Source of the DNA: Deltaproteobacteria bacterium
Lineage (GTDB): Bacteria > Myxococcota_A > Polyangia > Polyangiales > Houyiibacteriaceae
DNA: 64,000 bases
Direction of reading: 5' to 3'
NCBI GenBank assembly: GCA_034670305.1
Contig: JAXMNT010000004.1
Span: 81,182 to 145,181, forward strand
Made by a program: the position numbers and the translations under genes. Positions 8,582 to 52,186 of this stretch are shown piece by piece (positions within the stretch are counted from its first letter, which is position 1; each line of letters starts with the position of its first letter). The notes beneath the pieces are model-generated. The model searched no databases. It worked only from the letters and a program-made list of their open reading frames with translations, and had not been told where the DNA came from.

Positions 8582-11107
8582 TCATTGATGTCGAATCGCG
8601 TCTAGGGGTCGAAAACGGCCCGCCAGAATCGCGGGAAAAAGCGTCGCTAGGGCACACACGCCGAGCGCGATGAGACCGACGAGCGCGAACTCGGTGGCGT
8701 CCACGTTCACCGGCAGTCGGTCGATGTAATAGACCTCCGGGTTCACGCGGATCCCGAAGTGCTCGAAGACGAAGGTCACGAGGAACCCGAGTCCGAGTCC
8801 TATCGATGCACCGTAGACCCCGATGAGGATCCCTTCGATCAAGAAGATGACCACGACGCTGCTCTTCGAGGTGCCCATCGCGAACAGGATGCCGATCTCG
8901 CGGCCCTTCTCTTGGACCATCAAGGTCAGCGTGCCGAAGACACAGAAGCCCGCGATGAGGATGGCGATGCCGAGGGTGACGAACATCGCGAGCTTCTCGA
9001 GCGCGAGCGCACCGAAGAGCCCGCTGTTGAGCTCCTGCCAGTCGCGTACCCGGACGCCGTCGAGCAACATCGCGCCGCGGATTTCGTCGGCCACGGTGCG
9101 CGCGCGCTCCACGTCGTCGACCTTGATCTCGATCCCGGTGATCGCATCGCCCATGGAGAGGAAGCTCTGTCCGGCTTCCAAGAGCACGTACACGTTCTTC
9201 ATGTCGTACTCGTACATGCCGCTGTAGAAGATCCCGGCGACCCGGAAGCGGCGCGACTTCGGCATCGGTCCGGCCGGCCCCAGTTCTCCGAACGGAGAGA
9301 CGATGTCGATCTCGTCTCCAAGAAACACCCGCAGCGTACGCGCGAGCTCCTTGCCGATGACCACGCCCGGCAGCACATCGCGCCCCATCGGGTTCGCCGC
9401 CCGCGCCCGCTCATTCGCCGCCGCGTCCCGCAGGAACTCCGCCAAGTCCTCCCGAATCGGAGGCACCACACCCGCGCTGTCGGCATCGGCACCGGATTCG
9501 GCATCGGCATCGGCACCGGTTTCGGCATCGGCCTCGGCCTCGGCATCGGCATCGGCTTCGGCATCGGCATCGGCTTCGGCATCGGCATCGGCTTCGGCTT
9601 CGGCATCGGCTTCGGCTTCGGCATCAGAATCCGAATCGGCTTCAGAATCCCGGCCCTCCAGCACGTCGTCGATCTCCCGAATCAAGCTGCCGTCCTGATC
9701 GCGATCGCCCCCCGGTCGAATCTCGAGCGGAAGGATCGTGCGGCGCTCTTCGGGGGGAAGATCGAGCAGCCGCTCTGGATGAATGAGGTACTCGAGCCGG
9801 CCCCGGGTGAGGTTGGCCTCGAGGTCCATCACCGCGCCGACCGTCGCCGGATCGATGCCGCGCAACACCGCGCCGGCCCGGTTGGTCGCGGACGTCACCA
9901 TCACCTCGCCCTGCACCGACGGGGTCGCCGCCCCGACGCCCGGCGTGTCGCGCACGACATCGAGGATCGGAGACCAGCCCTCGAAGTGGCCACGTTCGGT
10001 GTCCACGACGATGTGGGCGTTGTTGCCGAGGATCTTGTCCTTCAGGTCGTTGCGGAAGCCGCCCATCACGCTCAACACCGCGCAGAGCATGCAGGTGGAA
10101 AACGCCACGGTCGCGATGCTCAGCCCACTGATGGTGGCGAGGAAGCCGCTCTTCTTCGCGCGCAGGTGGCGCGAAGCGACGAAGCTTCGAAACCCGAACG
10201 ACTCGATGGTCCGCATGATGACCGGCAGGAGCCGCACGAACACGCGGGTGGCGAAGATGGTCGTCACACCGAGGCGGATCATCGGGTGGATGAGCGACTC
10301 GATGTCGTCGTCGACCGGTTGCATCGGGAAGTTCGCCGAGATGAACGTGACGAAGACGACCGCTGCGACCGCCGCTAGGTCGAAGACGATCCAGAACCAG
10401 AACCGGAACCGCTGGGGGAGCAGGAACCAGAGCGTGATCCGCCCGACGCCCTCGAGCGCGCCGAAGACGAGCGCGACGATGGCGCTGATCTGCAGAAGCG
10501 ACTGCGCCCGGTCGCGGAGCGAGAGCTGCGCCTCGTCAAGCGCGTTGGTGAAACTGAAGCCGCTCTCGATCGAGACGGCGGCACCGAACGCCAAGAGCAA
10601 GAGCGGCACGACCACCACCACGACGAATCCAAGATGCAGAAACGCGGCCGCGTAGACCCGGCCCTTGCCGCGGTGGCCCGGCTGGAGCCGGCTCGCGAGC
10701 GAGAGCGTGAAGAGCGCCAGCCCCACATCGAGTGCGGTCCACAGCGCCAGAGGAAACGCGACCGTGGAAGCGCTCGTGCGGACGGCGATCCCGACCATCT
10801 GGGGCCAGAGTGCGACGACGGCACCGATGGAGCCGACCCACGCCAAGCTGAACAACGCGAATGCCGCAGGCAGCGGACCAAGTCCCGTCCGGGTCGGCAG
10901 CCGGTTCGCACGGGTCGAGATCCCGAACGCGGTGAGGCTCAGCCCGACCAACGCGACCAGCCAGACCACCAGCCCCATCGGCTCCTGGCGTTGGATGGCG
11001 ATCGCGCAGCCGATCCCGGCGAAGACGACGAGCGCCGCGCCGAGGCCCATCTGCACCCTCGCCTTGCTCGAACCAGGCGGATCGGAGCGGATGGTCGTGG
11101 CGCCCAC
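8582..11107 (-). CDS. LolC/E-family (FtsX-like) lipoprotein-releasing permease with N-terminal multi-TM extension and internal acidic repeat
   Basis: VLSVMGGFRNDLKDKILG, GIFYSGMYEYD, DWQELNSGLFGALALEK and EVYYIDRLP motifs. Confidence 0.88.
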   Translation of the reverse strand: MGATTIRSDPPGSSKARVQMGLGAALVVFAGIGCAIAIQRQEPMGLVVWLVALVGLSLTAFGISTRANRLPTRTGLGPLPAAFALFSLAWVGSIGAVVALWPQMVGIAVRTSASTVAFPLALWTALDVGLALFTLSLASRLQPGHRGKGRVYAAAFLHLGFVVVVVVPLLLLAFGAAVSIESGFSFTNALDEAQLSLRDRAQSLLQISAIVALVFGALEGVGRITLWFLLPQRFRFWFWIVFDLAAVAAVVFVTFISANFPMQPVDDDIESLIHPMIRLGVTTIFATRVFVRLLPVIMRTIESFGFRSFVASRHLRAKKSGFLATISGLSIATVAFSTCMLCAVLSVMGGFRNDLKDKILGNNAHIVVDTERGHFEGWSPILDVVRDTPGVGAATPSVQGEVMVTSATNRAGAVLRGIDPATVGAVMDLEANLTRGRLEYLIHPERLLDLPPEERRTILPLEIRPGGDRDQDGSLIREIDDVLEGRDSEADSDSDAEAEADAEAEADADAEADADAEADADAEAEADAETGADADAESGADADSAGVVPPIREDLAEFLRDAAANERARAANPMGRDVLPGVVIGKELARTLRVFLGDEIDIVSPFGELGPAGPMPKSRRFRVAGIFYSGMYEYDMKNVYVLLEAGQSFLSMGDAITGIEIKVDDVERARTVADEIRGAMLLDGVRVRDWQELNSGLFGALALEKLAMFVTLGIAILIAGFCVFGTLTLMVQEKGREIGILFAMGTSKSSVVVIFLIEGILIGVYGASIGLGLGFLVTFVFEHFGIRVNPEVYYIDRLPVNVDATEFALVGLIALGVCALATLFPAILAGRFRPLDAIRHQ
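9480..9650. repeat. Period-6 TCGGCN array in frame inside lolC/E (encodes EADA/DAEA)
   Basis: Tandem hexamers; reading frame maintained. Confidence 0.93.
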
Positions 11108-36062: not shown

Positions 36063-36327
36063 CCCTGCGGTTCTGCGACGGAACTTCCCCACAACTCCCC
36101 CGAACTCTCCCCAAAAGGAGGGGCGCCTACAAGTGACGCAGCGCCCACAGGCATGATCACGCAGACGCTGGTCGGGTCACCCGCGGTCGCTCGGAGGACC
36201 CAGAACCGCTGTTCTGTTTCTTGAGGCGGCGCACTCCTGCTTGGTGGTCGGTTCTCGCCGGCTTCTTGGTTTGGTTTCGGGAGAGTTTGGGGGAGTTGTG
36301 GGGGAGTGTGGGGGAGGAACCGCAGGG
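36063..36327. other. Long imperfect inverted-repeat element (candidate MITE or structured nucleic acid)
   Basis: 11-bp outer arms (36063-36073/36317-36327) and 25-bp inner arms (36087-36111/36279-36303, one G.T pair). Confidence 0.7.
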
Positions 36328-36361
36328 ACGCAGCACAGCACCGGCTGGGCATGCGCCCAGC

Positions 36362-36786
36362 CAGCATCAGAATCAGCGGCAGCATCAGCATCAGCGGCAG
36401 CATCAGCGGCAGCATCAGCGGCAGCATCAGCCGCAGCATCAGCCGCAGCATCAGCGCCAGCATCAGCCGCAGCATCAGCCGCAGCATCAGCCGCAGCATC
36501 AGCCGCAGCATCAGCCGCAGCATCAGCCGCAGCATCAGCGGCAGAATCAGCCGCAGCATCAGCCGCAGCATCAGCGGCAGCATCAGCCGCAGCATCAGCG
36601 GCAGCATCGGCTCGGCATGTCGGCTTCGGCATCGGCTTCGGCTTCGGCTTCGGCTTCGGCATCGGCATCGGCGTCGGCATCGGCTTCGGTTTCGGCTTCG
36701 GCTTCGGCTTCGGCATCGGCATCGGCGTCGGCATCGGCTTCGGCTTCGGCATCGGCATCGGCTTCGGCTTCGGCTTCGGTTCGGAT
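36362..36786. repeat. Composite array: (AGCATCAGCCGC)n 12-mers switching to TCGGCN hexamers
   Basis: Directly visible, upstream of radA. Confidence 0.95.
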
Positions 36787-36833
36787 CGCCTCCGCCCCAC
36801 AACCCGTCACACGCCCGTGCGATAAGACTCTCC

Positions 36834-38234
36834 GTGGCCGCCGCAAAGAAGAAGAAGTCGAAGAAGGGGAACTACGAGTGCACCGCCTGCGGGGCGCGGC
36901 ACGCCCGCTGGATGGGCAAGTGCACCACCTGCGACGAGTGGAACACCCTCGAAGAAGCCAAGGCCGAGGTCAGTGTCGCGTCGAAGGAGCGGACCGGTGG
37001 GAGCGCGCGTCCGGTGAAGATCAAGAACGTCAGCGCGGAGGATGCCAACCGGCTGCCCACCGGCATCGGCGAGCTCGATCGAGCGCTCGGCGGCGGCCCG
37101 GTCCGCGGCTCCGTGATCCTGCTCGGCGGCGATCCGGGCATCGGCAAGTCGACCCTCATGATGCAGGCGCTCGCCGCGCTGGCGGGGTCTGCCGCGAACG
37201 GAGGCGCGGGCCGAAGCGCGCTCTACGTCACCGGGGAAGAGTCCGCCGCGCAGGTCGCGCTGCGGGCGCGCCGCGTGGGCGGCAAGGGCATGGACGAAGT
37301 GCACCTGCTCGCCACGACCGACCTCGAAGACGCGGAGTCCGCGCTCGCGTCGATGAAACCCGAAGTCGCGGTCATCGACTCCATCCAGACCCTGCGCTCG
37401 AGCGAACTGGGCTCCTCGGCCGGCAGCGTCACCCAGCTGCGCGAAGTCTCCGGCCGCCTCATCGATCTCGCCAAGCGCCACGGCACCGCGATGTTCCTCA
37501 TCGGCCACGTGACCAAAGAAGGCACCCTCGCCGGCCCGAAGATGCTCGAGCACCTCGTCGACACGGTGCTCGCCTTCGAAGGGGACCGCAGCCACGCGTT
37601 CCGCGTCGTGCGCGCCACCAAGAACCGGTTCGGCCCCGCGCACGAGCTCGGGGTGTTCGAGATGGTCCGGGAAGGCCTGCGCGAAGTCCCCGATCCAAGC
37701 GCGCTGTTTCTCGCCGAACGCCCGAAGGACGCGGCCGGCTCGGTGGTCGTACCCACCGCCGAAGGATCCCGCCCGCTCCTCATCGAACTGCAAGCCCTCG
37801 TCGCCCCGCCCCAGTACGGCGCCCCGCGGCGCGTGGTCTCGGGGCTCGACGGCAACCGCCTCGCCATCCTGCTCGCGGTGCTCGACCGAAAGGCCGACGT
37901 CGGCGTGCTCGACCGCGACGTCTTCGCTTCGGTCGCCGGCGGCGCCCGCGTCGACGAACGCGCGCTCGACCTCGCCCTCGTGCTCGCCGTCGTCAGCAGC
38001 TACCGCAACAAGCCGGTGCCCGTCGACGTCGCGGCGTTCGGCGAAGTCGGCCTCGCCGGCGAAGTCCGCGCTGTGCCGCGCCCCGGGCCACGGGTACAGG
38101 AAGCGGCGAAGCTGGGTTTCTCGCGAGTGATTCTGCCAGCCGCCAACGCCGACCGCCTCACGAAGTCCGAACGCAAAGGGGTGCGGCTGATCGCGGTCAA
38201 CACGGTCGAAGAAGCGCTGGCGGTGCTGAGCTGA
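36834..38234 (+). CDS. radA: DNA repair protein RadA/Sms
   Basis: C4 zinc finger CTACG...[30 protein letters not shown]. Confidence 0.97.
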
Positions 38235-42740: not shown

Positions 42741-44135
42741 TCACCGCGCCCGAACCGTCACCTCGTTCCCATCCCGCACCGCACGAAGCCCGCGCGCCCG
42801 CCCCACCGCCTGCGCCAACGTCCCAGCGTGTTCCTCGCTTTCGACGGTCAGCGTCCACGAGAACCCCTGCCCGTCCTCCGCCGGAACGAACACATCCCCC
42901 CGCCAATACGAAGCAAGCACGCGCGGCGCGTCTTCCCCGTGCTCGAGCAGGAAGGACCAAACCGCCAGCTCCCCCAGCGAATCGGGAGCGACGGCGGAGG
43001 CCGCCGCTGCTGAAGCTCTTGCTGCGGTTCCTGTCTCTGTTGCTGCCGCTGTCTCTGTTGCTGCCGCTGTCTCTGTTGCTGCCGCTGTCTCTGTTGCTGC
43101 CGCTGTCTCTGTTGCTGCCGCTGTCTCTGTTGCTGCCGCTGTCTCTGCCGCTGTCTCTGTTGCTGCCGCTGTCTCTGCCGCTGTCTCTGTTGCTGCCGCT
43201 GTCTCTGTTGCTGCGTCTGCTTCTGTCTCTGACTCTGAGTCTGTCTCCGCCTCTGTCTCCGCCGCAGCCGCTCTCTCCGCCGCCACCGCCGCGGCCGCGT
43301 CCACCGCCGCGTCCGTCGGCCCGTGCAGAATCTCGGACATCGTCCCCGGCGGCCGCCCATACGCCTGGTTCACCGCGACCCACCCGCCCCGTTCCCGCAG
43401 ACGCCGCACGTAGGGCGCGCCATACGCGTACGGCGCGACCAAGCCGAGCCGGACGATGTGGGGCGCGGAGTGCAACGGGTGGTCGTCGCCGAGCTCGAAC
43501 GCACCGGCCCGCGCATCGACGAGCACGCTCGCTTCGCCTTCGATCAAACAGCGGAGCGCGAGTTTGGCGTCGCTGGTCGTGGCGGCGTCGTCGAGCGCGC
43601 TGAGATCGAAGTGCTGGTCGACGAGCGCGTGGGTGAGTTCGTGCATGAGCACGCTCTCCGGATGGTCGCGCCCTGCGGCGTCGCCAATCCGCCCGAACAC
43701 GTCCGACCGCACGACGAGCTCCTCCGCCCGCGGGTCGTAGTACCCGAGCACCGCGTCCGAGAGATCCCCGAAGTCGACCTCGTAGTCCTCCGGAAGCAGG
43801 CCGAGCGCCTGGTACGTCCGGACCCGGCGGGCCTGCGCGACCGGATCTTGCGCCGCGCCAAGCCGCTCCCCCATCTCGCGCCGGGTCACGGTGACGGCGC
43901 GGACGGGTCGCAGGAAGCGGAGTTCGCGCCGGCGCTCGACCTCGCGGGCGAGGCGATCGATGCGGCCGGCATGGATCGCAGCCAGCCCAACACCGTGCCG
44001 CATCGCGGGCGAGGGGGTGTCCGAGGTGACTTCGCGGCGAACGAACTGGGCGGGGTCGGTGGGTTGCGGCGGGGTGGCGGCCGGGGGGCACCCCAGCAGC
44101 AAACAGATCCCCAGCCACCCGTATCGTGTTGCCAC
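42741..44135 (-). CDS. Lipoprotein, putative gluzincin metallopeptidase
   Basis: LLLGC lipobox; [19 protein letters not shown] and LIEGEA motifs; internal ETAAAT repeats. Confidence 0.72.
43022..43270. repeat. 18-bp (3x6) tandem repeat CTGTCTCTGTTGCTGCCG, in frame (TETAAA)n
   Basis: Directly visible. Confidence 0.93.
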
Positions 44136-44665: not shown

Positions 44666-46186
44666 GTGCAGTCCGAGGTCAGCGAGATCAGCCCCATCCA
44701 GGTCGAGATCAAAGTTCAGGTCCCCTGGGATCGAGTGAAGAAATCCCTCGACCAGAACTTCGCGCGTCTCGCCAAGACGGCGAAGGTGCGCGGGTTCCGG
44801 CCCGGCAAGGTGCCCCGCCACGTCATCAAGAAGCTGTACGGCCAGGCCGTCAAAGCCGAGGTGACCGGGACCATCATTCAAGAAGGTCTGCTGGACGCGT
44901 TCAACAAACACGAGCTGCCGGTCGTGGCCCAGCCCGAGGTCACCCCGCCCCCGATCCTGGACGGGGAGGACTACCACTTCACCGCCAAGGTCGAAGTCCG
45001 CCCGACCATCGACTCCGTCAACCTGGACGGCCTCAAGATCGTGCGCCCGAACGCCGAGGTCGAGGACGCTGCCGTCGACGCCGAGCTCGCCCGGATGCAG
45101 AAGCAGCAGGCCGAAGTACAAGAGCCGGAGCCGATGCGCCCCGCCATCAAGGGCGACCGGGTCACCATCGACTACCAGGTCTCGGTCGACGGCAAGGTGA
45201 ACCCCTCGATGGGCGCCGAAGGCCGCGACGTGGACCTCGGCGACGAAGGGCTCAACCCCGAGTTCGACGCGGGCCTGCTCGGAGTGGTGCCCGGCGACGT
45301 GAAGTCGATCGACGTCTCGTTCCCCGAAGACCACCACCACGAGGATCTCCGCGGCAAAACCGCGACGTTCGAGATCACCGTGCACTCGCTCCGCGAGGTG
45401 GTGCTGCCCGAGATCGACGACGAGTTCGCGAAAGACGCGGGTGAGTTCGAGACCCTGCTCGAGCTGCGGCTCGACGTGCGCAAGCACCTGCAAGACCTCG
45501 CCGACCGCCGCTCCGCCAGCGAGCTGCGCGATGGGCTGGTCGAGGCCGTCGTCGCCCTGAACGACATCCCTGTCCCGCCGACCATGGTCAAAGAGCAGAA
45601 GCAGCAGATGCTGATGCAGATGGTGCAGTTCGCGCAGATGACGGGTCAGCAGCTCGGCGACTTCTCCGAGCTCGACGGCCGCGCCGAGAAGCGTGTCCGC
45701 GCCGGCCTCGTCCTGAGCGCGCTCGCGCGCCAAGAGAAGATCGAAGTCAGCGAAGAAGACGTCGCCGCGAAGTTCGCCGAGATCGCAGAGTCGACCGGCA
45801 AACACATCGCCAAGGTGAAGGTCGAGTATGCGGGCGAGAAGCGCGATCGGCTCGAGCAGACGATCATGGAAGACCGCATCTTCGCGTTCCTCAAGGAGAA
45901 GGCGGAGTTCGTGGACGCGCTGCCGGAGGGCGACGCGGCCGAGGCGAAGTCCGAGGACAAGCCGAAGAAGGCTGCGAGCAAGAAGCCGAAGGCCGCCAAG
46001 GCGAAAGCCGACGACGCCGAACCGGCGGAAGCCGCGCCCAAGAAGAAGGCCGCCGCCAAGAAAGCCGCGCCCAAGAAGGCCGCGCCCAAGAAGGCCGCGC
46101 CCAAGAAGGCCGCGCCCAAGAAGGCCGCCAAGAAAGCCGCCCCGAAGAAGGCCACGAAGAAGGCCGCCAAGAAGAAGTCCGACTGA
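44666..46186 (+). CDS. tig: Trigger factor with KKAAP-repeat tail
   Basis: GFRPGKVP signature, FKBP domain, [10 protein letters not shown]; GTG start with AGGAG upstream; lies upstream of clpP. Confidence 0.95.
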
Positions 46187-46245: not shown

Positions 46246-46851
46246 ATGTACGTCCCCGTCGTCGTAGAGCAGACCCACCGCGGTGAGCGCACCTGGGGCC
46301 TCTTCAGCCGCCTGCTGAAGGACCGCATCATCTTCCTCGGCAGCGAGATCGACGACGAGGTCGCCAACGGCGTCATCGCGCAGATGCTGGTGCTCGAGAG
46401 CGAAGATCCCGACAAGGAGATCACGCTCTACATCAACAGCCCGGGCGGCTCGGTCACGGCCGGTCTCGCGATCTACGACACCATGCAGTACGTGCGCTGC
46501 CCGGTCGCCACCGTCTGCCTCGGACAGGCCGCTTCGATGGGCGCATGGCTGCTCGCCTCCGGCTCGGCCGGCCTCCGCCGCGCGCTGCCCAACAGCAAGA
46601 TCATGATCCACCAGCCCCTCGGTGGCATCAGCGGCCAGGCGACGGACATCGAGATCCACGCCAACGAGATCCTCAAGCTGCGCTCCTGGATGAACGACAT
46701 CATGGCGAAGCACACCGGCAAAACCGCCGAGGTCATCGCCGCGGACACCGAACGCGACCGCTACCTCACCGCCGAAGAAGCGCTCGAGTACGGCGTGGTC
46801 GACGAAGTCGTCCCCCCCCGCAAAGCCCACGCCTTCCCCTCTGCGAAGTAG
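46246..46851 (+). CDS. clpP: ATP-dependent Clp protease proteolytic subunit
   Basis: [28 protein letters not shown] and IMIHQPLGG motifs. Confidence 0.98.
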
Positions 46852-46904
46852 CGCCTTCGCGGACGCGGGTAGCGGAGCGCCCACGGGACGCTCCGCCGCC
46901 CAGG

Positions 46905-47205
46905 CTACCCGCGACTGAGCTTGAACAACATCGCGCAGACGTGGTCCGCGAGGTCGTAGACGTCCTCCCCCACGTCCACGTACCCCATCACCCCCGCGAC
47001 TTGAAGAGCCGCCTTCACCTCGCGCGCTTCGCCAAGCGCGCGGGAGAACCCGTCGGGGTTCCGTCCGCCCCTCGCACTCCGAGACTCCGCTATCAAAAGC
47101 GGCACCGCCTGTGCCGCCCGCCGCAGCGACTTCAGCGAAGCCTCGCGAATGCGAGGCAGAACCTCGCGTACGAGCACGAAGGAGCGACTTGTCGAATACC
47201 AGCAT
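46905..47205 (-). pseudogene. Frameshifted four-helix-bundle protein (23S rRNA-IVS/TIGR02436-like; Avd structural family)
   Basis: GGGAGG-N5-ATG at 47205 gives MLVFDKSL, then a one-base frame change to [13 protein letters not shown]...[14 protein letters not shown]...[18 protein letters not shown]...[11 protein letters not shown]; span is 301 nt. Confidence 0.72.
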
Positions 47206-47246
47206 GTTGACCTCCCGGTCGTTGCGCCGAGCGTGAACTCGCCCGA

Positions 47247-47375
47247 GGGCGCGAAGCGCCCCCAGCTGTCGGCGGGGTGGCGGGTCAAGGACGAGCAAGC
47301 GCGAAGCGCGCCAGCGAAGCGGCGGGCATCCCGCCGGGCCGAAGGCCTCCTTGAGGCGCCGCCTCGCCGACAGCT
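47247..47375. other. Multi-branched palindromic element with GAA-triloop mini-hairpins
   Basis: 28-nt arms 47264-47291/47348-47375 enclose GCGCGAAGCGC, GCGAAGC, GGCGGG-CAT-CCCGCC and GGCCGAAGGCC; GGGCGCGAAGCGCCC lies just outside. Confidence 0.85.
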
Positions 47376-47463
47376 ACGCTGGACCATCCATCGGGCCACC
47401 CACCTCCACGAGGAGGGGCGCAGACTGGAGGCTGAGGTTCTGCGTCGGCTTCGGCGGGCTTGC

Positions 47464-47815
47464 GTCGGCATCGGCGTCGGCGTCGGTTTCGGTTTCGGTT
47501 TCGGTTTCGGTTTCGGTTTCGGTTTCGGCGTCGGGCATCGGCATCGGCTTCGGCATCGGCTTCGGCTTCGGCATCGGCTTCGGCTTCGGCATCGGCTTCG
47601 GCATCGGCGTCGGCTTCGGCTCGGCGTGGGCTTCGGCTTCGGCGTCGGCTTCGGCGTGGGCTTCGGCTTCGGCATCGGCTTCGGCTTCGGCTTCGGCTTC
47701 GGCGTCGGCTTCGGCGTCGGCTTCGGCGTCGGCTTCGGCGTCGACTGCTTTGGGATCGGCGTCGACTTTCGAGGGCACCAGCACCAGCACCAGCACCAGC
47801 ACCAGCACCAGCACC
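47464..47815. repeat. TCGGNN array (47464-47745) plus (GCACCA)n (47775-47815) between clpP and clpX
   Basis: Directly visible. Confidence 0.95.
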
Positions 47816-48044
47816 CACGGCCCGCCCTGTCCCGTCTGAGCAGCCCGTGCGTTTTCGCGTCCAGCCCCGCCTGGCGCCCCGCCCCGGAAAGATCGTCCAG
47901 GGACTGGCGCGGCCCCGAACCCCTTGGCTATTCTCCCGCTCCGGGGGCTGCTGGGCGTGAGCAGTCTCCCACTCCAAACCGGTCGGGGGGCCTCGGTGGT
48001 TCTCCCGGCTCGACGCAACCCCCCAGAAGCACTAGGTAGATCCG

Positions 48045-49295
<1,251 letters not shown>

Positions 49296-52039: not shown

Positions 52040-52180
52040 CAGCTTCGGCTTCGGCGTCGGCTTCGGCTCCGGCATCGGCTTCGGCATCGGCATCGGCTTC
52101 GGCTTCGGCTTCGGCTTCGGCTTCGGCTTCGGCTTCGGCTTCGGCTTCGGCGAATCGGCATCGGCTTCGGCCTCGGCTTC
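52040..52180. repeat. TCGGCT/TCGGCA array upstream of tRNA-Val
   Basis: Directly visible. Confidence 0.95.
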
Positions 52181-52186
52181 GCGCGA

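Follow-up and report, generated by a model that had tools for sequence, protein, structure and literature searches.

The spacer between clpP and clpX in a Polyangiales genome holds a decayed copy of a selected, multi-copy cassette. The cassette is embedded in tandem hexamer arrays and carries, behind a structured leader, a gene whose predicted product is a four-helix-bundle protein of the PF05635/TIGR02436 (S23p) family. The genome (7.9 Mb, 68% G+C, 105 contigs) is G000 in our locus labels. The window, by which we mean the whole stretch of 64,000 nt that was analysed, is a conserved housekeeping region, and all coordinates given without a contig name are positions in it. An earlier note on this DNA had taken the insert for a decayed copy of a small mobile or repeat-generating unit. 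The decay and the multi-copy nature of the unit were borne out; a mechanism of mobility and the generation of repeats were not.

Insertion between clpP and clpX

The locus is made up of the following parts:

46246-46851, plus strand: clpP, left flank of the insertion (PF00574, E 1e-80)
46867-46901, minus strand: terminal hairpin of the cassette, directly after the stop codon of the gene and 15 nt from the clpP stop
46905-47207, minus strand: frameshifted four-helix-bundle pseudogene of family A, ATG at 47203-47205, stop at 46905-46907
47208-47440, minus strand: conserved structured leader, model core 47238-47380, long stem 47264-47291 with 47348-47375
47465-47743, no strand: hexamer array (TCGGCT)46.5, also (TCGGCN)46.5, which reads (CCGANN)n on the cassette strand and abuts the leader
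47775-47815, no strand: (GCACCA)6.8 array, (CTGGTG)n on the cassette strand, outer member of a polar array pair
47816-48044, plus strand: unique sequence 5' of clpX, 229 bp, single copy in the genome
48045-49295, plus strand: clpX, right flank of the insertion (zf-C4_ClpX and AAA_2 domains)

From the end of clpP (46851) to the start of clpX (48045) the spacer measured 1,193 bp, in line with the gap of about 1.2 kb noted earlier. The 30 relatives used for comparison belong to other genera within the family or order; they gave 29 loci, 27 of them with both clpP and clpX. A compact spacer of 63-256 bp was present in 27/27 relatives with both genes on one locus, which agrees with the earlier statement that the tig-clpP-clpX-lon cluster is normally compact and supplies the empty-site comparison proposed with it. 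The 1,193-bp spacer is a lineage-specific insertion, and for annotation it is of value that the cassette explains the interruption of this conserved cluster.

The 229 bp at 47816-48044 are probably the native clpX upstream region, because their length equals that of a whole spacer in the relatives. With this single-copy sequence matching the relatives' spacer length, about 950 bp would therefore have been added directly after the clpP stop codon. A base-level alignment of the residual spacer with that of the closest relative gave no significant similarity. The passage from clpP into the cassette was bridged by an independent 843-nt contig with 0 differences (two public runs of one study). A 273-nt contig from a run of a second study also bridged it, with 10 differences in 271 nt.

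Several relatives (L002-L006) had a CTTGCC ... TAGACT-like motif upstream of clpX in common. The motif suggests that clpX has its own promoter in the relatives; an equivalent was not confidently placed here. A sigma-70 promoter scan found none, two terminator-like hits were no better than those in shuffles, and PADLOC gave no match.

The gene is broken in the window and intact elsewhere

The open reading frame (ORF) 46905-47207 runs antisense to clpP and clpX, as described before. It matched PF05635 at E 1.6e-6 with 28.7 bits, below the gathering score of 33.8 bits and over profile positions 27-105 only, and TIGR02436 with 28.6 bits, above the cut-off of 24. The intact paralogues reached 44-66 bits against TIGR02436; the profile search proposed earlier thus gave a family match that is weak for the broken copy. 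A profile of 14 cassette proteins matched PDB 2gsc (E 5.4e-12) and 2rld (E 0.0026) in a sequence search, both of which are solved structures of the S23p family. By these profile matches the predicted cassette protein is placed in the PF05635/TIGR02436 four-helix-bundle family.

Compared with 12 intact paralogues, the window copy lacked 8 bp (near 47175-47177) and 3 bp (near 47125), the positions being taken from the extra letters in other contigs. The frameshift that the earlier note had seen is real, since an independent contig at the genome's own depth showed the same deletion state. A strong ribosome-binding site had also been claimed. The motif itself was there, with GGGAGG 6 nt before the ATG at 47203-47205; this ATG is out of frame with the matching ORF. 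In the run of the second study a contig over 46954-47205 showed 4 differences and 11 extra letters, and no paralogue in this genome exceeds about 85% identity with the window copy. A sister strain thus seems to keep an intact clpP-clpX allele, since the 4 differences and 11 extra letters fit an undeleted one.

BLAST with the gene and leader showed that the genome has 13 more copies of over 400 bp as well as 3 fragments, with identities of 78-93%. The aligned copies of this cassette of about 0.6 kb shared a leader of about 240 nt, an ORF of 103 amino acids and a hairpin after the stop codon, and the similarity stopped just beyond this terminal hairpin. Read on its own strand, the family A cassette has the order polar hexamer-array pair, leader, ribosome-binding site and gene, covarying hairpin. 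A (CCGANN)n array of 85-361 bp abutted the leader in the same orientation in 12/14 family A copies, and 4/14 had a like array also 3' of the hairpin. The arms of the terminal hairpin in the window (46867-46882 and 46886-46901, 16 nt each) are 81% complementary around the core GCGGAGCG/CGCTCCGC, and its fifth stem position covaried with its partner across the aligned copies (A-T, G-C, T-A). The small hairpin reported near 46871-46895 corresponds to it.

In total the genome had 48 PF05635 matches, 39 of them above the Pfam cut-off. They fell into four groups, given here with the repeat unit found upstream of the gene:

Family A: 14 copies, of which 12 are intact, one is the window pseudogene and one is interrupted by an insert; CCGANN upstream in 12/14 copies
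Family C1: about 8 copies; CCGCNN-type unit upstream in 5/8 copies
Family C2: about 13 copies; CAGNNN upstream in 10/13 copies
Family B: an element of about 560 bp with the order CTAG, hairpin, (GCCCTT)5.5, gene, (AAGGGC)5.5, hairpin; GCCCTT upstream in 10/11 copies

Each gene subfamily keeps its own upstream repeat unit.

The ends of family B gave 168 left-end and 169 right-end matches, and only about 10 copies keep the gene. Left and right ends formed 57 pairs that enclose 0-504 bp, and in one further pair the internal length is 3,647 bp. The PF05635 protein of family B, an example of which lies on another contig (L035, G000 C15:131400-132400), is of a more canonical kind; internal deletions affect most copies. 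Many family B copies lie at contig ends, and family B probably breaks the assembly.

The pairwise ratio of non-synonymous to synonymous divergence (dN/dS) was 0.06 for family A, 0.09 for C1 and 0.13 for C2, at dS of 0.46-0.63. The four-helix-bundle gene and the leader are under purifying selection in the intact copies. Because such low ratios go together with dS of this size, the copies are old and the protein is under selection. Two family A copies (G000 C19:96076-96724 and C10:56758-57381) carry extra hairpin-rich inserts inside leader loops. In the one on C19 the start codon is, in addition, closely followed by an insert of about 130 bp with inverted ends, and an array stands in place of the 3' end of this copy.

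The leader is a conserved structure of the sense strand

The leader folds into a long stem around two or three hairpins, followed by further hairpins. In the window the 28-nt long stem is 86% complementary and closes a multi-hairpin fold (fold z-score -3.0), which is the 28-bp-stem structure recognised earlier upstream of the gene. A covariance model built from family A (R1) matched every A, C1 and C2 leader on the strand of the gene. The window held one leader only, with 154.3 bits on the minus strand and 41.4 bits for a palindromic echo on the plus strand. Among family A copies the leader core was 91% identical, compared with only 59% identity at synonymous sites.

On 20 leaders 91.5% of the cells were paired, as opposed to 42-46% with slid partners. 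In the same set 17 pairs changed on both sides, against 10.7 +/- 1.2 in shuffles (0/500 reached 17) and 3-8 with slid partners. The compensatory pairs made up 12/22 in the long stem and 5/6 in one inner hairpin. In alignment A4 the C1 rows were one column off in the last helix, and the 68% pairing there is an underestimate. Over 32 distinct leaders G-U pairs outnumbered A-C pairs 42 to 14, from which it follows that the sense strand is the one that folds. The long stem went undetected when RNAalifold was run on a plain MAFFT alignment of the three families. Rfam 15 gave 0 matches at E <= 1 for 46700-48100 on both strands, and the leader was unmatched.

Hexamer arrays accompany the four-helix-bundle genes

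Tandem Repeats Finder (TRF) reported 1,375 period-6 rows, which merged into 1,209 array loci covering 145 kb, 12 of them in the window. Only 58 of the 1,209 arrays lay inside confident ORFs. Among the long TCGGNN-type arrays (>=60 bp, both neighbours called, n=228) 16 stood between divergent, 95 between convergent and 117 between tandem genes, compared with 641, 619 and 1,739 in the intergenic background (n=2,999). Long arrays are thus rare in divergent and enriched in convergent regions. Neighbouring arrays kept a fixed order and orientation: (GCCCKT)n was followed by (CCGANN)n in 89 cases, against 21 and 13 otherwise, and (CTGNNN)n by (CCGANN)n 19 times, with 1-5 instances of the other orders. 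The pair in the window, already described as a TCGGNN array of about 280 bp and a (GCACCA)n tract, obeys the latter rule.

Of the 48 PF05635 matches, 46 had a period-6 array no farther than 600 bp upstream or 400 bp downstream. Control genes, called by G+C content at third codon positions (GC3), had one in 1,118/3,980 cases (28%) even with a more generous window; here the size of the contrast counts, not a p-value. The enrichment of arrays beside these genes, which the earlier note had proposed to look for, was therefore found. The gap between array and start codon clustered at 220-290 nt in this genome. In all, 350/1,209 arrays overlapped a family B end or lay no more than 700 bp from a PF05635 match.

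One further site in the window bears on the relation of bare arrays to cassettes. A gene-less (GCTTCG)23 array (52042-52181, no strand) lies downstream of lon and is followed by tRNA-Val. At the orthologous site of G012, a relative of the same family, there are two hairpins, a leader, a four-helix-bundle gene on the minus strand and, on the same strand, a (TCGGCG)n array. The difference would have arisen through loss of the cassette here or through its gain in G012 next to an array; since the array stands alone here and together with the cassette in G012, the site fits insertion beside an existing array equally well.

Other repeats of the window were of mixed kind. A (TCGGCA)27 array at 9480-9640 lies inside the minus-strand ORF 8585-11107, whose C-terminal half is an FtsX/MacB-type permease and in which the first 95 positions of the MacB periplasmic domain profile were unmatched. 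It may be that the array is translated in frame, or else that the ORF truly starts downstream of the array. In a RadA-like gene the 5' end of the longest ORF (36306-38231) is overlapped at 36386-36784 by (CAGCATCAGCCG)18.6 and then (TCGGCT)29.7, in the rarer order of these two array classes. Two coding repeats have no relation to the hexamer arrays: the C-terminal tail of trigger factor contains a 15-bp KKAAP-type repeat (46029-46177), and ORF 42741-44135 has an 18-bp repeat giving (ETAAAT)n (43031-43214).

The pairing of gene and array in other genomes

Copy numbers of PF05635 genes ranged from 0 to 31 among the 30 relatives, against 47 here in the count used for that comparison. The pattern CCGANG x5 occurred 4,778 times in this genome, 359 times in G012 and 0-23 times in the other relatives. 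In G012 a hexamer array lay 220-350 nt upstream in 19/20 fetched four-helix-bundle loci; one of its subfamilies uses (CCGAHG)n and the other (TCAGTC)n. The (TCAGTC)4 pattern was found 196 times in G012, 12 times in G017, once in G026 and 0 times here and in the other 27 genomes, and many of the G012 matches were away from listed genes. By eye, the G012 leaders show the layout ...AAAGG / hairpins / GCTTCGCTCGTC / CCTTGAC and have several motifs in common with the leaders described here. A word-indexed protein search returned only 5 clusters, all of this genome's kind or fragments, and a scan of named genomes with one peptide pattern matched only the G012 chromosome.

The pairing of array and gene was seen in six other Polyangiales genera. 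Besides G012, upstream arrays were present at 6/6 loci of G002, 6/6 of G013, 5/5 of G030, 1/2 of G008 and 1/1 of G027, their periods being 6-20 and their units differing from genus to genus. At the loci of G002, G013, G030 and G008 (L133-L150) the four-helix-bundle genes are mostly convergent pairs 10-110 bp apart, with arrays on both outer sides. In a wider sample of 30 Myxococcota loci, drawn from 200 genomes, 14 had an array (period 6-21) no more than about 200 bp away from the gene. The clpX control loci had any array in 6/29 cases, none of them of period 6-7.

A plasmid protein search matched 32 records, mostly from Nostocales, and 8 of them were fetched. At 8/8 of these cyanobacterial plasmid loci a lone four-helix-bundle gene stood between unrelated genes, in short spacers with tandem heptamers that were often inverted across the two sides. 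The heptamers were called by TRF for two loci and by eye from the spacers for six, and two of these six have only 3-5 units. The host neighbours were nrdB/nrdA, cas6/cas4 (twice), type I secretion genes, conjugation genes and others. In the plasmids of Anabaena sp. 90 and Pseudanabaena galeata (L184, L189) the lone gene sits between cas6 and cas4 of a type I-D CRISPR-Cas system and is flanked by long heptamer arrays.

Published observations touch on the same pairing. In the Coxiella intervening sequence, tandem GACAGAT heptamers occur just before the S23p ORF and their number varies among strains, according to the part of PMC4990558 that deals with them. G-rich heptamers are enriched in Xanthomonas and Nostoc, as a section of PMC4692102 reports; the main text of that article is without S23, 'four helix' or 'intervening sequence'. 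A search of the literature on the family, on hexanucleotide and heptameric repeats and on myxobacteria, with supplementary files outside its scope, found no paper that makes a general link between the gene family and tandem arrays.

Search for enzymes of mobility

No reverse transcriptase (RT), HUH enzyme or transposase was found among the 26 ORFs of the window that were scanned, all of them housekeeping genes; the earlier note had said as much. Nor was any such enzyme found linked to the cassettes. The expected link of the arrays to an RT or HUH family acting from elsewhere in the genome failed: three RVT_1 matches were present, all of which scored best as retron families and none of which stood beside a four-helix-bundle gene as part of a diversity-generating retroelement (DGR), and only 3/11 copies of the HUH family Y1_Tnp had a period-6 array within 1.5 kb. 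A DGR was rejected on the first of these grounds, and on the second, together with the fact that Y1_Tnp forms an element of its own, an HUH link was rejected as the leading explanation. The retron-type RTs (C23:85581-87260, C10:168215-169597 and C67:18010-19680) have long N-terminal extensions, and the one on C67 is separated by about 5 kb from a family A cassette and by about 3 kb from a leader fragment. The Y1_Tnp element is about 1.1 kb long, with a protein of about 240 amino acids, long inverted ends and 11 copies that are 69-87% identical (e.g. C20:45721-46002). No template-variable repeat pair was seen, without a dedicated search; the repeats of the spacer were arrays and hairpins only. 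No four-helix-bundle gene was present inside 23S rRNA, the single 23S gene found being 3,013 nt long against a model of 2,925 positions, with no large insert.

Interpretation

We favour, with a probability of about 0.5, the reading that the insert belongs to a selfish cassette of intergenic regions that pairs a protein with its cognate arrays and has the leader as the RNA partner of this protein, the unit being copied or lost through the arrays. The presumably oligomeric, mildly basic four-helix-bundle protein would have the tandem array, its own leader RNA or both as its target, be it by binding, by autoregulation or by formation of a ribonucleoprotein. The arrays would offer long homology at hundreds of 3' intergenic sites, and a cassette could be copied in or lost by recombination through them without a transposase of its own. 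A cassette that was lost or decayed would leave a gene-less array. At clpP-clpX the gene was later inactivated by the two small deletions. The way in which the cassette moves is inferred.

Several results weigh against this reading. Family A has no terminal inverted repeats, the alignment of its copies showed no target-site duplication, and its flanking arrays are direct repeats, not inverted ones. Family B does have inverted ends, made of hairpin and array. No family copy is recent, the copies differing by dS of about 0.5-0.6, and no movement was seen. The fraction of 46/48 overstates the statistics, because paralogues are not independent. A leader model (R2) found no match in the 30 relatives, where 104 candidates per genome were scored. 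Across relatives the array burden followed the copy number of the gene only loosely; G013, G002 and G030 have 16-17 genes and yet 0-2 matches of the CCGANG pattern, with other units present. Moreover, 859/1,209 arrays had neither a PF05635 match within 700 bp nor a family B end, and of the AAGCCG-type arrays only 23/378 were accounted for in this way. The suggestion that the other arrays of the window are gene-less derivatives of the cassette was not borne out: the window has a single leader, many arrays are free of cassettes, and the site downstream of lon fits it no better than it fits insertion beside an existing array.

Among the alternatives, the one that survives best holds that the genes are non-mobile paralogous regulators or nucleic-acid binders with a structured 5' untranslated region (UTR), that a hypervariable repeat tunes their expression as in a contingency locus, and that the clpP-clpX copy arose by segmental duplication. 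Strong purifying selection on old copies would suit such regulators, as would an array whose distance upstream of the start codon stays fairly constant (220-310 nt) in two genera. So would the variable number of heptamers among Coxiella strains (PMC4990558, in the part cited above) and the intergenic repeats that, together with a 5' UTR element, are tied to phase variation in Haemophilus in a portion of PMC12721329. We nevertheless consider this explanation improbable, since it accounts neither for hundreds of gene-less arrays of the same classes nor for the internally deleted series of family B, and since the lone genes inside unrelated cyanobacterial operons and between clpP and clpX, as well as the wide range of copy numbers among relatives, are left unexplained.

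A route through single-stranded DNA, as in REP/RAYT (repetitive extragenic palindromes and their associated tyrosine transposases) or IS200/IS605, is less probable still. HUH Y1 transposases would here move hairpins, with antisense GNA triloops, and arrays in trans, and the four-helix-bundle gene would be cargo. The excess of G-U over A-C pairs is difficult to reconcile with it, for the folding strand is the sense strand and not the one with the GNA loops. Many leader loops do read GAA or GCA on the antisense strand, the CTAG, hairpin and array of the family B ends recall IS200/IS605 ends, and the long TCGGNN-type arrays lie in 3' intergenic regions as REPs do. The 11 Y1_Tnp copies in the genome would provide the enzyme; they are, however, mostly free of nearby arrays and form their own 1.1-kb element with long inverted ends. 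Arrays also occur at cyanobacterial plasmid loci without an adjacent HUH gene.

We regard the involvement of an RT as quite unlikely. The four-helix-bundle protein would in this case partner an RT in trans, like the DGR protein Avd, and the arrays would be the product of a short template copied over and over, or else array sites would receive a DNA copy of the cassette RNA. A sense-strand leader and three RTs in the genome would fit, and a passage in PMC10053308 describes PF05635 as Avd-like. The retron type of all three RTs, none of them next to a four-helix-bundle gene in a DGR, speaks against it, as does the failure to see a template-variable repeat pair, for which no dedicated search was made. 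The leader loop CUUCGG complements the unit CCGAAG, which may be coincidence in GC-rich hairpins, and the upstream units of C1 and C2 are unrelated to it.

The least probable explanation is that slippage-driven lineage microsatellites and unrelated small four-helix-bundle genes merely pile up in the same permissive intergenic DNA, for although most arrays have no cassette nearby and arrays are enriched in convergent and depleted in divergent regions, this leaves the contrast of 46/48 with 28%, the subfamily-specific units at constant spacing to the gene, the composite arrays of fixed polarity and the recurrence of the association with other units and periods in other genera and in cyanobacteria without a cause, and MutS and MutL are present, so that loss of mismatch repair, rejected as a cause of the arrays, does not supply one.

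Genes of the PF05635/TIGR02436 family are common and often multi-copy, and the intervening-sequence ORF has long been suspected to be selfish. To our knowledge the family has no known function or means of spread and has been unexplained since the 1990s, and the abundant 6-7-nt tandem arrays of some bacteria are a separate observation for which we know of no explanation. The present genome joins these two puzzles through cassettes with sharp boundaries, a structured leader, subfamily-specific units and a range from intact cassette to bare array. Since the pairing extends across genera and into another phylum, both the function of the four-helix-bundle proteins and the origin of the arrays become testable, and the pairing may explain where short tandem repeat arrays come from. 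A wider proposal, which we put forward only tentatively, is that PF05635 proteins and 6-7-nt tandem arrays are the two halves of one widespread protein-repeat system, in which every protein subfamily would determine a repeat unit of its own, which it binds, seeds or extends, and the gene-less arrays would be the footprint of the system. If true, the 1,209 hexamer arrays here, the cyanobacterial heptamers, the G-rich heptamers of Xanthomonas and Nostoc and the Coxiella heptamers would have a common origin, and the PF05635 protein family would have its first function.

Comparison with known systems

Avd of DGRs is a small helical protein thought to bind nucleic acid. Avd has been described as resembling PF05635 (in part of PMC10053308); unlike in DGRs, no DGR reverse transcriptase accompanies the cassette, and the RTs of this genome are retron-type and lie elsewhere.

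The arrangement resembles that of REPs and bacterial interspersed mosaic elements (BIMEs) with their RAYT genes in that hundreds of short structured repeats occupy 3' intergenic regions and far fewer protein genes are flanked by them. The repeats here are tandem 6-nt arrays, not single palindromes. The flanked gene encodes a helical protein of 103 amino acids without a known catalytic motif, and it is multi-copy, with subfamilies that each have their own repeat unit.

In cyanobacteria, families of short tandem heptamers are named STRR (short tandemly repeated repetitive sequences). We know of no origin or function for these or for the tandem heptamers of Xanthomonas and Nostoc. Like the arrays described here they are intergenic tandem arrays of 6-7-nt units and very abundant in particular lineages; the present arrays differ in their period of 6 and their high G+C content.

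Family B recalls miniature inverted-repeat transposable elements (MITEs), with about 170 copies per end, mostly internally deleted, and about 10 that keep the gene. Unlike the parent elements of MITEs, full-length family B encodes a four-helix-bundle protein only and no transposase, and its ends consist of a hairpin and a 33-bp hexamer array.

The intervening sequences of 23S rRNA genes with an S23p ORF, as in Leptospira and Coxiella, differ from the cassette in position, since the latter lies between protein-coding genes and not in rRNA. The long stem of the cassette stands upstream of the ORF instead of enclosing it, its arrays measure 85-361 bp, and the genome has 48 family matches. In common with these intervening sequences, the cassette is small, enzyme-less and set inside conserved DNA, its predicted protein belongs to the same PF05635/TIGR02436 family, and hairpins or stems stand beside the ORF, which in Coxiella is likewise preceded by tandem heptamers, as the same part of PMC4990558 describes.

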